From: a virus
Taxonomy: Duplodnaviria; Heunggongvirae; Uroviricota; Caudoviricetes
Direction: 5' to 3' (one strand)
DNA length: 64,000 nt
IMG/VR virus record: IMGVR_UViG_3300021387_001477
Numbering within the stretch: position 1 is the stretch's first letter; each line of letters starts with the position of its first letter. Below, piece by piece: positions 18,854-22,649 of this stretch. Both the position numbers and the translations under genes were made by a program. The notes beneath the pieces were generated by a model. The model did not search any database. It saw nothing but the letters and a program-made list of their open reading frames with translations, and was not told the DNA's origin.

Positions 18854-19036
18854 CTAACTGGACTTCTCCTCTTTTTTCTTGGGTTCACTCTTGAAAAGTT
18901 GATATGCTTTTCCTACGCATATTACCAAGATTCCCATAGATATTATAAAAAGGGAATCTCCAAGTGTAAAATGTCCTTTTTCCATAAATTTTAGTTTCAG
19001 TCTTGATGCATGGGACATTATTTCCTTCCCATGCAA
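18854..19036 (-). CDS. small membrane protein
   Basis: 60 aa, LFIISMGILVICVG followed by basic tail; internal ATG may be the true start. Confidence 0.65.
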   Translation of the reverse strand: MHGKEIMSHASRLKLKFMEKGHFTLGDSLFIISMGILVICVGKAYQLFKSEPKKKEEKSS

Positions 19037-19059
19037 AATGGTTTAATGAAGGGAAGGGA

Positions 19060-19299
19060 TTAGACGGTTTCAGGCTTAGGAACAAATTTGCCGTTCTTTT
19101 TGTAGCAGATGTACTCCTTTCCGTTTTTAATGAATACAACCTTCTTTATCTCATCCTTCTTAGCGTTGTTTGCTTCTTCCTTGTTATCAGAAGCATTTTC
19201 GTTGTTTTCGCTGTTCCTAACCTCAAAAAAGGCCGCGACAGCAATGGCAATAACCAGTAATCCGGCTCCGATGCCAACTTTTTCTACTACATTTTTCAT
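19060..19299 (-). CDS. small membrane-anchored protein
   Basis: VGIGAGLLVIAIAVAAFF. Confidence 0.75.
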   Translation of the reverse strand: MKNVVEKVGIGAGLLVIAIAVAAFFEVRNSENNENASDNKEEANNAKKDEIKKVVFIKNGKEYICYKKNGKFVPKPETV

Positions 19300-19365
19300 A
19301 ACTTTTTACTTTAACTTTTCATCGCCTCTTTACGGGCTTTTGTAGTTTAGTGTCGACGCTGGGAC

Positions 19366-19509
19366 TCAAGACTCTTCATCTCTCCCAGCAATGGTTCTTA
19401 GATCCTCCTTATTTTCTTTAATAAACTGAGAAATTGCATCGAATAATCCTTCAGCTATGCCAAAGATTAGTACATCTATAAGTAATAGTTTAACTAGGCT
19501 GCACCTCAT
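19366..19509 (-). CDS. small hydrophobic protein, 47 aa (below cutoff)
   Basis: Manual translation MRCSLVKLLLIDVLIFGIAEGLFDAISQFIKENKEDLRTIAGRDEES; overlaps upstream stop. Confidence 0.6.
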   Translation of the reverse strand: MRCSLVKLLLIDVLIFGIAEGLFDAISQFIKENKEDLRTIAGRDEES

Positions 19510-19732
19510 AACCTTTTTCCTCCACAACTGTTTTAAATCTCTTTATTATATTCTCTGCGGTATTCTCTTTGTCTGTATCTTCAGGATGATCTTTAAAATA
19601 TCCGTTTTCGGCATCTGTATAAATATAATGCCAAATTTCTTTCAGGATGTCATATACCAGACTTCCTGCTGCTTGCCCCATCAATGTTCCCAATAGGTGT
19701 AATAGGGCATCTGTAAAACTTTTTAAAAACAT
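19490..19732 (-). CDS. small protein with amphipathic N-terminus
   Basis: 80 aa, LLHLLGTLMGQAAGSLVY. Confidence 0.7.
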   Translation of the reverse strand: MFLKSFTDALLHLLGTLMGQAAGSLVYDILKEIWHYIYTDAENGYFKDHPEDTDKENTAENIIKRFKTVVEEKGYEVQPS

Positions 19733-19765
19733 CTCTTGTTAATATTTTCTCGAAAGAGAAGAATT

Positions 19766-20008
19766 TTAAATTTTCTTCTCCCAAAATGATTTAGATATGT
19801 CGGATGCGCCTTGCCGGCATGCAGAAAGATCATTTCTAAATTTCTTGATGTCCTTTATTTTTCCAGACTTTTCAATATAATTTATATCTTCCTCATCCAA
19901 CTCCAAAGACATAGACACCACCTGCATTCCAAGTGATGTATTTTCACTATCAAGCTCAAACTTATTGTAAAGCTCGATATACTTTTCTAGATCTTTTTTG
20001 TTTATCAT
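19766..20008 (-). CDS. hypothetical protein
   Basis: 80 aa. Confidence 0.7.
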   Translation of the reverse strand: MINKKDLEKYIELYNKFELDSENTSLGMQVVSMSLELDEEDINYIEKSGKIKDIKKFRNDLSACRQGASDISKSFWEKKI

Positions 20009-20049
20009 AATATAATAGTTATTGTCTCTTTTAATAGTTTGTTTTGTTT

Positions 20050-20650
20050 ACCCAGAACTTCTCTTTCCAGGATTTTTGAAGTAAAATCATATCTTTTGTT
20101 CAGTACTCTTCGTCTTACTTATATGTTTTATGATAAGAGAGGTCTGTATACTTCTCTCAAATTACTTCCGACGTCTAAGTTCTCATAATATCATACAGGA
20201 TATTATGATTCCCTAGTTCACGGTGTACATCCGCTACCGCCCTTGTATATCTCTATAATTATTTTTCTTCAAAATAATATCAATATACTGGTTCCAAATT
20301 CTTTTCGAATTCAGAAAATTTATATAATTTGTTACACACGACCGGGCTTAAATAGATACCCAGCCATATGTTTGTCTCTAAAACCATTTTTCCGCTCCCT
20401 AGCCTATACTTATGCACCTTATGTATTCGGTCGGAACTAACAACAATTCCGAATAGGCATTACCCTAGCATAAGCCTGAGACATTTTAACCTCGCCGGGA
20501 CGAGGGTGAGTGGGGACTCTCACATTTCATTATATAAGCTCGCTCTCAGCACCTTCACTATGCTTATATAACTAAGTATAATAATATTATACGCCCCAAA
20601 ATAAAATCAAGAAAACTAGACTATTAAATCTAATTTCCTTGAGGTATTTT
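20050..20650 (-). ncRNA. candidate large structured ncRNA
   Basis: Starts after minus-strand promoter motif 20655-20665; no credible ORF; 10 or more helices including perfect 10-bp stems 20530-20571 and 20183-20208; G-U pairs favour the minus strand. Confidence 0.6.
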
Positions 20651-20677
20651 ATTACATATATAAGGCAATCAAGCTCT

Positions 20678-21061
20678 TTAAAACGGAGGAGTTAGTGGTG
20701 TTCCTGTTGTTGAAATCCCACCATAAGGAAAGTATGAAGGATCAAGATTAAAACTACGTAATAGGTTTTCCAAATGTTGTATACGAGCCTCTAACGCAGT
20801 TATTTGTATGGCCAAATTATTAATCTGGTTCTCGAGATCCAGAATCCTCTCATCCTTTTTAGATAAGATATCACGTATAACATTCTCTGGGCCCTCATCT
20901 AAGATCTTCTCTAGGGCCTTTTGAAGAATTCCCTCGATTATAGAATTATAATCAAAGTTAATATTAAACCCAGCTTCTCCTTTATAATCAGGGTCAGCAG
21001 GTTCACCTTCGCCTCCTTCTGTCCAGGACTGAGAGTTGTTGTAATTATAAAAATCCATCAT
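20678..21061 (-). CDS. coiled-coil hypothetical protein
   Basis: ILDLENQINNLAIQITALEARIQHLENLL heptads. Confidence 0.75.
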   Translation of the reverse strand: MMDFYNYNNSQSWTEGGEGEPADPDYKGEAGFNINFDYNSIIEGILQKALEKILDEGPENVIRDILSKKDERILDLENQINNLAIQITALEARIQHLENLLRSFNLDPSYFPYGGISTTGTPLTPPF

Positions 21062-21065
21062 ATTA

Positions 21066-21779
21066 TTAGTTATTATTATTTATATCTCCGGCCTCGATAA
21101 TCTCCATGATTCCAAGTCCCCTATATATTACATTTTCATACGACCCCGATATAGAGTCATGATAATGCCCGAAATACCAGTAATCGGTTGTAACTTCAGA
21201 TAGTACGTGATTTAAATATTTCCTTTCATCCATAATATTCTCCCACTGATATTCTGGTAATCCTTCTGGTCGTGTAGAGACTGGATTGAAAGAGAGCGGA
21301 GCACAATGACTAATTATTATATCAACTTTTCCGGGGAGATTATCATATTTCTCTATAACTTTTTCTCCTTCCCACCAGACTCTCTTATCTTTTCCTCTTG
21401 ATGCTAATTTTTGATTTGTTTCTAATCTCCACCCAATATCGAGTGAACTAGCACCACCTATCGGATAAATATTCCTTCCTGAAATATTATATATCTTATG
21501 ATCTTCCATAAATCTAAGAAGTGGATAAGAATATTTATCCTCATCGGAAAAATAGACAGGATCATCGTGGTTTCCTCTTATCGTCCAGATTTTGAGATTA
21601 TTTTTCTCTAGTCGCTTTTCTGCCCATTTGTATAGATCTGGCATATCATTAGTAAACCCAATGCCAAAATCTCCAAGTATTATAATATTTGCATCGTGAA
21701 GACCATACTGTTGGGTTATTTTAAAGACGAACTCTTTCCACTCTCCATGTATATCTCCACAAAAATATAAATTATTCAT
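21066..21779 (-). CDS. calcineurin-like metallophosphoesterase
   Basis: GDIHG, LGDFG, RGNHD, SHCAP, FGHYH. Confidence 0.9.
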   Translation of the reverse strand: MNNLYFCGDIHGEWKEFVFKITQQYGLHDANIIILGDFGIGFTNDMPDLYKWAEKRLEKNNLKIWTIRGNHDDPVYFSDEDKYSYPLLRFMEDHKIYNISGRNIYPIGGASSLDIGWRLETNQKLASRGKDKRVWWEGEKVIEKYDNLPGKVDIIISHCAPLSFNPVSTRPEGLPEYQWENIMDERKYLNHVLSEVTTDYWYFGHYHDSISGSYENVIYRGLGIMEIIEAGDINNNN

Positions 21780-21820
21780 ATCAATTATTAGGTCTTCAAC
21801 CTCGCTCTACTACCTTATTA

Positions 21821-22282
21821 ATGATGGATAGTGAAAAATATAGGAAATACTGTATAGAATGTGAAGATTGGTTTAAGAAAGAGGAGGAATTTTATGCCAA
21901 GATGAAGGCTATTCACGACTCTTCTCTTCCGAGGAGTGAAAAAGAAAGAAGACAAGAAAGAATTAGGAAAAAGTACGGTAAGGATGGAAATAGTTCTGAT
22001 TTTGGTCCGTGGGTTGAAATATATGACCCAAAAGACCTTCTAGATCCAAATTTTATACTTCCAGGTTATAATTGTAGTTTTCTTAACTTGTCAAATACCG
22101 ATCATGATATTCCTTCATACTTTGGAAAATATATAATCAGTGAGACTCCAGATTATTATGGAAAGGTCATTGGATACGCATATGATATGGGAGACGATTA
22201 TATAATTGCGTTACATCCTTCTGGTGAGATTCGTGCAATAATAGTTAATTCACATTATAAAGTTTATGATAATAGCAATTGA
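21821..22282 (+). CDS. hypothetical protein
   Basis: 153 aa; promoter motif 21813-21823. Confidence 0.75.
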   Translation: MMDSEKYRKYCIECEDWFKKEEEFYAKMKAIHDSSLPRSEKERRQERIRKKYGKDGNSSDFGPWVEIYDPKDLLDPNFILPGYNCSFLNLSNTDHDIPSYFGKYIISETPDYYGKVIGYAYDMGDDYIIALHPSGEIRAIIVNSHYKVYDNSN

Positions 22283-22649
22283 TTTTGATGGAACTTGTGT
22301 TGAACATAAGTATCCAGAGATAGGAAATGAATTACCGGGCTGCGTAGATACATTAAAAGAACTTGTATCTATGGGGCATCGGCTTGTTCTCAATACCATG
22401 AGAGGTAGGCCTAAGAAAGAGGGAGATAGAGATACTCTTCAGGAAGCCTTAGATTGGTTTCAGGAAAGAGGAATTATCCTGAGTGGGTTTAATATATCCC
22501 CAGGACAGTGGAATTGGACAACATCTCCGAAGGTGTATGCAAATCTTTATATAGATGATGCTGGCCTAGGATGTCCCAAAGATCAAAATGGACAAGTAGA
22601 CTGGGCTGAGATCCGGAAGATGCTTGGATTAAAAAAAAATAAAGAGTGA
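22266..22649 (+). CDS. HAD-family hydrolase (BT0820-like small HAD)
   Basis: IAIDFDGT, KVYANLYIDD; paralog of 46849-47328. Confidence 0.85.
   Translation: MIIAIDFDGTCVEHKYPEIGNELPGCVDTLKELVSMGHRLVLNTMRGRPKKEGDRDTLQEALDWFQERGIILSGFNISPGQWNWTTSPKVYANLYIDDAGLGCPKDQNGQVDWAEIRKMLGLKKNKE

Follow-up and report, generated by a model that had tools for sequence, protein, structure and literature searches.

A conserved, highly structured noncoding RNA with an enlarged pistol-type core in a lineage of jumbo gut/rumen phages

Pistol (Rfam RF02679) is a self-cleaving ribozyme (Weinberg 2015; Harris 2015, PMC4604425) that is associated with phages, occurs in Bacteroidales and is known from Alistipes (PMC4604425). 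In the solved pistols, the guanine of the GCG motif serves as general base, and P1 is where the AAA linker docks (PMC6101554, which also gives the env25 sequence). The GU dinucleotide at the scissile position is modestly conserved, and the 2-nt length of the junction is strict (Harris 2015, PMC4604425). For two other RNAs to be compared below, ROOL and GOLLD, covarying loop-loop pairs proved to be intermolecular (PMC12286853).

The window analyzed here is a 64,000-nt stretch of a caudoviricete virus (IMG/VR record IMGVR_UViG_3300021387_001477), in which an ORF-free gap (20009-20677) lies between a 127-aa ORF (20678-21061) and an 80-aa ORF (19766-20008), both on the minus strand. The first-pass annotation, made from the letters alone, had proposed that most of this gap encodes a structured RNA of ~600 nt with several domains, read from the minus strand and driven by a promoter. 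The non-coding part of this proposal was borne out, as no ORF of at least 50 aa was found on the minus strand of the gap under table 11, table 4, TAG=Q or TAA=Q, short non-conserved frames excepted, and the idea of an alternative genetic code opening a frame was dropped. No frame is conserved among the homologues described below, and every frame on the RNA strand of each of them is interrupted by 14-28 stops. The longest frame among the homologues, 128 codons, occurs in the contig L020 only, where a gene caller annotated it; this 118-aa call (L020:6657-7013) lies inside the RNA without a counterpart in any homologue and is probably spurious. The gap is not the longest non-coding stretch in the window, as had been stated, since positions 35400-36117 span 718 nt against ~670 nt here. 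The minus strand of the gap folds at -178 kcal/mol (z = -7.97 against shuffles), compared with z = -1.74 for the plus strand. Invariant G-U pairs are workable on the minus strand alone, and we thus assign the RNA to that strand. No informative family was found for the proteins encoded by the neighboring genes. Sixteen RNA runs from animal gut share 0.09-0.46 of positions 18000-22500 of the window, shares that indicate neither expression nor habitat.

Homologues of the RNA occupy the equivalent position in related phage contigs. The contig L004 (317,399 bp) is 100% identical over the RNA, and eight near-identical contigs (99%) retrieved with the downstream 80-aa protein all keep the gap. Starting from phosphoesterases 55-64% identical to the upstream one, we reached diverged contigs in which a gap of 560-800 nt takes the corresponding position, and the RNA was found in these gaps by nhmmer with E values from 1e-13 to 5e-27. 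A search with a conserved pattern yielded 31 metagenome contigs and two IMG/VR contigs, and ~32 carry the full-length element; two further pattern matches, in bacterial and archaeal MAGs, showed no profile homology and were discarded as chance. A covariance model built from the 5' domain, detected 40 copies in 425 kb of fetched sequence, 31 of them distinct (E values from 1e-14 to 1e-76), and a single copy in the window. The alignment used for the overall fold, A1, comprises 15 non-redundant homologues that are 51-96% identical. Genes downstream of the RNA differ between homologues. No match to the RNA was obtained by blastn against 50,697 phage records, the two distant loci reached in IMG/VR via the phosphoesterase were both devoid of it, and no comparable gap was seen in the nearest named relative, Bacteroides phage BS162P1 (47% identity in a CobS-like ATPase).

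The covariation check run on the homologues found more than 80 pairs with compensatory changes (83 of the 109 pairs predicted by RNAalifold on A1). In the model-based alignment of the 31 distinct 5' domains, 96.9% of cells are paired and both sides change in 39 of 52 pairs; none of 500 shuffles reached any of the observed measures, and slid partners were 32-43% paired with 12-16 such pairs. Counted directly, 91.6% of cells are paired in the 3' domain, and both sides change in 48 of 63 pairs, as opposed to 13-21 of 63 for slid partners. Across the homologues, the pairing is kept and the frames are broken, and the multi-domain minus-strand RNA is supported by homologues, covariation and strand asymmetry alike.

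The helices that had been picked out in the window recurred in the homologue-based fold (Table 1) and mostly covary. In the 5' part, ucaagga/uucuuga is P1h, for which a hairpin of differing sequence stands at the same place in 15 of 15 homologues; guauaa/uuauac is P2h (both sides change in three of five pairs), the 10-bp uuauauaagc/gcuuauauaa is P3h (10 of 10) and gugag/cucac is P4h (five of five). Within the pistol-type core, ccucg/cgagg is P1, of which seven stem variants are found, all paired and all with a loop of 6 nt; gucuc/gagac is P2, present with partial covariation support; and ucggaa/uuccga is P7 of the covarying P6-P8 arm. The pair gcuggg/cccggu belongs to the variable linker hairpin, and uucugaauuc/gaauuuggaa and ucauaauauc/gauauuauga are P9 and P14, respectively. 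Long-range pairing, which had also been suggested, does exist, between 20500-20495 and 20402-20396 and between 20198-20193 and 20149-20144. The two complementarities originally put forward as pseudoknots or alternative folds are not among them: cuuaugc/gcauaag is an ordinary nested helix, P6, and gccuau/auaggc is restricted to this lineage. Two other candidate helices were set aside. A CCUA/UAGG helix closing the 5' domain is nearly invariant and competes with the pistol core, and a helix between AAAACC of the promoter and GGUUUU shows no covariation and would sit upstream of the likely start.

It had been suspected that positions 20050-20190 might be a decayed reading frame. That suspicion is refuted: the hairpin P18 covaries (CCUGGAA/UUCUGGG, CUUUGGG/CCUAAAG, CUUUAUG/CAUAAAG and CUUAAAG/CUUUAAG) around an invariant loop, from which we conclude that the last 140 nt are RNA, and stops occur in all frames of the homologues. 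More generally, the reading of the gap as something other than RNA, be it a decayed gene, structure that arose by chance or an element working at the DNA level (an origin or an array for protein binding), is scarcely credible in the face of the strand asymmetry, the G-U pairs, the more than 80 compensatory pairs, and the absence of repeats and of a conserved frame in this region. Altogether, the gap is the gene for a conserved, highly structured noncoding RNA of a jumbo gut/rumen phage lineage, encoded on the minus strand and ~600 nt in size in the window phage and up to ~750 nt in its relatives.

Table 1. Positions and sequence features of the RNA and its surroundings in the window. RNA position 1 corresponds to window position 20677.
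Feature	Position	Strand	Description or evidence
Promoter-like motif CCTTATATATG (extended form cTTGATTgCCTTATATATG; here CCUUAUAUAUG)	20655-20665	-	invariant in 15/15 aligned homologues
CCTTAWWWATG sites	2135, 4449, 15351, 20655, 21813, 25984, 28581, 35403, 35491, 43151, 48544, 50430, 51052, 55230, 60838		
5' unit	20598-20645	-	invariant ACCU 20645-20642; P1h 20641-20608; U-run 20606-20598
P2h-P4h	20506-20592	-	P2h 20592-20576; P3h 20572-20529; P4h 20523-20506; both-side changes
Pistol-type core	20374-20505	-	match to Rfam Pistol consensus line, pseudoknot covariation
P1	20505-20490	-	5 bp; 6-nt loop 20500-20495
Linker UUAAAAU	20489-20483	-	
P2 5' strand GUCUC	20482-20478	-	
Inserted three-helix arm P6-P8	20475-20408	-	loop UGUUGUUA; helices covary
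AUAGG	20407-20403	-	
Pseudoknot strand	20402-20396	-	
GCG	20395-20393	-	
Weak A/U hairpin	20392-20380	-	
Junction	A20379 G20378	-	
P2 3' strand	20378-20374	-	
Variable linker hairpin	20334-20371	-	core GGCUGGG/CCCGGUC; between both domains
3' domain (P9-P18, ten helices)	20051-20316	-	RNAalifold pair table, covariation
P9	20316-20292	-	
P10/P11 arm	20288-20245	-	
P12	20234-20220	-	
P13/P14	20216-20175	-	loop CUGUAU 20198-20193
P15	20168-20162 with 20084-20078	-	
P16	20158-20135	-	loop AUACAG 20149-20144
P17	20134-20129 with 20091-20086	-	
P18	20071-20051	-	invariant loop AGAGAAG
Rfam Pistol consensus			acUCGUCuggGCGAgu-AUAAAuA-cgCa-UUAgGCccaGAGC-[P3]-GU-uGcg
Family consensus of the core			P1 hairpin (c/g)UCGUCugaGCGA(c/g); linker UUAAAAUAU; P2 5' strand AUGU or GUCUC; GG[C ... 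P6-P8 ... ]AUAGG; pseudoknot strand; GCG; weak P3-like hairpin GAAAG..AUGG..UUUU; junction 1-3 nt; P2 3' strand ACAU or GAGAC
Pseudoknot variants (loop/strand)			UCUGAG/CUUAGA, UCUGGG/CCCAGA, UCAGGG/CCUUGA, UUAGGG/CCCUGA, UGCCGG/CCGGCA, UUCCGG/CCGGAA, UUCGGG/CCCGAA, UGCCAG/CUGGCA, UUUUGG/CCAAAA, UUUGGG/CCCAAA, UCCCGG/CU(A)GGGA

The motif at the start of the RNA proved to be recurrent, as 15 copies of CCTTAWWWATG were counted in the window against 0.8 expected (~18-fold), in intergenic positions and with the extended consensus. The same motif precedes tRNA-Tyr by 7-9 nt in the related phage L017, and a tRNA-like gene of the window (50962-51044, minus strand) starts 7 nt after the copy at 51052-51062. 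This tRNA-like gene was missed by ARAGORN, scored 28.5 bits with the Rfam tRNA model (gathering score, 29) and carries 19 nt in place of the 7-nt anticodon loop. We infer from these positions that CCTTATATATG acts as the phage's own promoter, also for tRNA genes. Based on the spacing of the motif before tRNA genes, the 5' end of the RNA would be at ~20648-20646, 7-9 nt downstream of the motif; this position falls just ahead of the first conserved block.

The P1h hairpin and its U-run were called by a terminator scan (16 pairs plus TTTTATTTTG), and the hairpins of different sequence at the P1h position in the 15 homologues are likewise followed by a U-rich tail. Placed right after the promoter, this unit should end a fraction of the transcripts early. 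The loop of P3h (GAAGGUGC, 20556-20549) is invariant. Five or six motif copies, including that of the RNA, have a terminator-like hairpin and a U-run in the 80 nt behind them, a layout that may reflect antitermination-controlled units; the hairpins after the motif could either attenuate transcription or protect the 5' end of the RNA. Upstream of several motif sites stands an inverted variant, so that the two form divergent units. At 54909-55245 (minus strand), a structured stretch (z = -5.1), the order of promoter motif, ACCU, hairpin and U-run repeats the one with which the RNA begins. The ORF-free gap at 35400-36117 (plus strand), the longest in the window, has a fold z of -3.5 and several direct-repeat families, contains the promoter motif twice, with a terminator-like hairpin behind each copy, and bears two repeated hairpins, the loops of which contain AUGUACA and GUAUACAG, words of the P12 and P16 loops of the RNA.

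This layout is one of the reasons to consider the RNA as a giant cis-acting leader, that is, the 5' UTR of a small-protein operon that controls read-through or message stability. In addition to the terminator-like hairpin behind the promoter, seen here and after four or five further copies of the motif, as in antitermination-controlled units, the downstream genes are co-stranded with the RNA, no terminator precedes the next ORF in the window or its clade, and homologue loci are free of a further promoter motif for ~3 kb after the RNA. We nevertheless regard a leader as improbable, since a strong intrinsic terminator, absent in the window and its clade, follows the RNA in most homologues, the downstream genes vary from one homologue to another, and no alternative terminator/antiterminator pairing was found. 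Nor is the ops-like GGCGGTAG conserved, and an ops/JUMPstart element (JUMPstart hit with E 0.59) was rejected on the same ground. GAAGGUG was considered as a Shine-Dalgarno mimic and discarded as imperfect.

At gathering score, Rfam returned nothing on the window or on 10 homologue loci. For ROOL and GOLLD in particular, neither covariance model reached gathering score in any of these sequences, and on the RNA region even a cutoff of E <= 10 brought up no hit, in agreement with the first-pass annotation, which could not match the hallmarks of either class. The statement that the RNA belongs to no recognizable family held insofar as no Rfam model matched at gathering score, but it failed for the center of the 5' domain, which bears a pistol signature. 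The weak Rfam hits include a single catalytic family, Pistol, in the window (16.1 bits) and in the contig L013 (17.5 bits), both below the gathering score of 34.5. We attribute the low score to the P6-P8 insertion of 70-120 nt, which the Rfam model cannot span.

The order of elements is that of pistol: P1, J1-2, P2, a junction with the pseudoknot strand, P3, a short junction and the second strand of P2. Nearly all upper-case positions of the Pistol consensus agree (UCGUC..GCGA, AAA in the linker and UAgGC-PK-GAGC). The agreement includes the AGG and GCG on either side of the pseudoknot strand, a strand that lies beyond the reach of the Rfam score and had been located by covariation ahead of the comparison. 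The AAAA linker, AUAGG (AUAAG in two sequences) and GCG are invariant and agree with the Rfam consensus. The 6-bp pseudoknot is canonical at all six pairs in 15 of 15 sequences, and 11 compensatory variants of loop and strand occur among the 31 sequences (Table 1). The remaining elements are less clear. P2 reads GUCUC/GAGAC in one clade and AUAUGU/ACAUAU in another, with two compensatory positions in one register, and UCUU/AAGA in L020; it is poorly supported in the clade of L034, L037 and L038 and also in L029, and a crude helix search did no better than shuffles. The equivalent of P3 consists of 2-5 A-U or G-U pairs (AAAG/UUUU type) with a variable loop and cannot show covariation. The junction reads A, AG, G, AC, AA or ACG among the homologues and GU in none of them, and no definite length of 2 nt can be assigned to it. 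Thus, the core is likely homologous to the pistol self-cleaving ribozyme, and self-cleavage is predicted with about even odds, given the weak P3, the junction of ambiguous length in which the scissile position never shows GU, and the unclear P2 in one clade. Another pistol-like 5' half, which lacks the insertion, was noticed at 2077-2128 (plus strand), with P1 AGAUG/CAUCU, the loop AAGCAG, the linker AUAAAAAG, CACA, UUAAG, the pseudoknot strand CUGCUU and GCG, and with the promoter motif directly after it at 2135; it received no Rfam call at gathering score.

The 5' domain is joined to the 3' domain by the linker hairpin, which most homologues possess in versions differing in sequence and length, three of them A/U-rich; A1 is poorly alignable here. 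The 3' domain (~330 nt) is a separate fold that matches no known family. The loops of P13/P14 and P16 form a 6-bp kissing loop that pairs in 15 of 15 aligned homologues and holds in all 26 sequences checked, with five invariant pairs and a sixth that is A-U in 15 and U-A in 11, without exception; the change at the sixth pair may represent a single evolutionary switch. The kissing loop would lock the 3' domain, and intramolecular and intermolecular pairing alike are compatible with the sequence. Resemblances to other ribozymes in this domain were not retained: a Hatchet-like UGGGGCGU occurs in one clade only and gave no Rfam hit, and a Hammerhead-like CUGAUGAG in the P11 loop is not conserved.

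Taking both domains together, we propose with about even confidence that the RNA comprises four hairpins and a pistol-type core followed by the ten-helix 3' domain, starts at the promoter and is probably cleaved within the core. Transcription would start a few bases after the putative promoter motif CCTTATATATG, and the pistol-type core would probably cleave the transcript at the short junction between the weak P3 and P2, near 20379|20378. Such a cut would part the 5' module from the 3' domain. In the phages without a terminator after the RNA, that of the window included, it would likewise detach the 5' module from the messages for the small proteins encoded downstream. A 5'-hydroxyl end would be left on the released RNA.

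Alternatively, and as the main rival reading, the whole 600 nt may be the functional unit of a stand-alone ornate RNA with a role in trans like that proposed for GOLLD and ROOL, perhaps self-assembling through its conserved loops, with the pistol module as a rigid, non-cleaving pseudoknot. We consider this rather unlikely, even though several observations speak for it. A promoter motif of its own precedes the RNA, and an intrinsic terminator follows it in most homologues; the scissile position is without a conserved GU, and the pairing of P3 is weak; and many invariant purine-rich loops and a variable linker are present, the loop-loop pairs of ROOL and GOLLD being intermolecular (PMC12286853). 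Moreover, in L017, in which the phosphoesterase is 55% identical and a homologue of the 127-aa ORF is found, four tRNA genes fill the slot of the RNA (tRNA-Tyr, tRNA-Gly, tRNA-Ser and tRNA-Pro; L017:1829-2227), suggesting a locus for stable RNA. On the other hand, GCG, the G before the pseudoknot strand and the AAA linker, which are catalytic in solved pistols, are invariant at 51-60% identity, so that more is kept than a purely structural role would obviously need. The 5' pistol-type domain is also found without the 3' domain, in the distant relative L048 (5030-5950, minus strand). This copy is without P1h, carries the pseudoknot UUUGGG/CCCAAA and is followed by a 60-aa hydrophobic ORF (a small membrane protein) and then by another long hairpin region, which implies that the two domains are modular.

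A bolder version of the cleaving RNA is a giant pistol, the extensive conserved periphery of which would let it cut only with a given ligand, protein or tRNA or at a given stage of infection, or one in which the released 330-nt 3' domain is itself catalytic or self-assembling. We view this version as quite improbable; if true, it would establish regulated or composite ribozymes as a new class in jumbo phages. Large conserved RNAs of unassigned job are rare, and RNase P, group I and group II introns, OLE, ROOL and GOLLD are linked to unusual chemistry or assemblies.

In comparison with pistol, the RNA described here shares the 5-bp P1 (UCGUC...GCGA), the 6-nt loop that is fully paired downstream, the AAA linker, the A(g)G and GCG around the pseudoknot strand, a putative enclosing P2, a short hairpin with a junction, and the association with phages and Bacteroidales. 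It differs from pistol in the three-helix insertion between the 5' strand of P2 and AUAGG, the four extra hairpins upstream and the 330-nt domain downstream, as well as in the P3 of few A-U pairs, the non-GU junction and the score below gathering. In glmS and other small ribozymes with peripheral domains, a small catalytic core is likewise extended by added folded domains; the fold of glmS is unrelated to that of the RNA here, for which no ligand is known. ROOL and GOLLD (PMC5737381, PMC12286853) resemble it in size (580-800 nt), in having numerous helices as well as pseudoknots and kissing loops, in being phage-encoded in rumen and gut metagenomes, and in the variable linker, and the RNA here occupies the slot of tRNA genes in a relative. 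In contrast to ROOL and GOLLD, it shows no sequence or model similarity to either, has no adjacent tRNA genes in its loci, contains far more invariant nucleotides and possesses a ribozyme-type core. This is a new RNA family, a composite of an enlarged pistol-type 5' domain and a 3' domain matching no family, and with 31 distinct sequences, about 120 covarying pairs and two tertiary pairings it is a well-supported addition to the RNA families of uncultured gut jumbo phages. It also illustrates that covariance-model searches at curated thresholds miss ribozyme cores bearing large insertions. Unlike ROOL and GOLLD, the RNA offers a concrete handle, namely a recognizable pistol-type core with an insertion and domains that canonical pistols lack.
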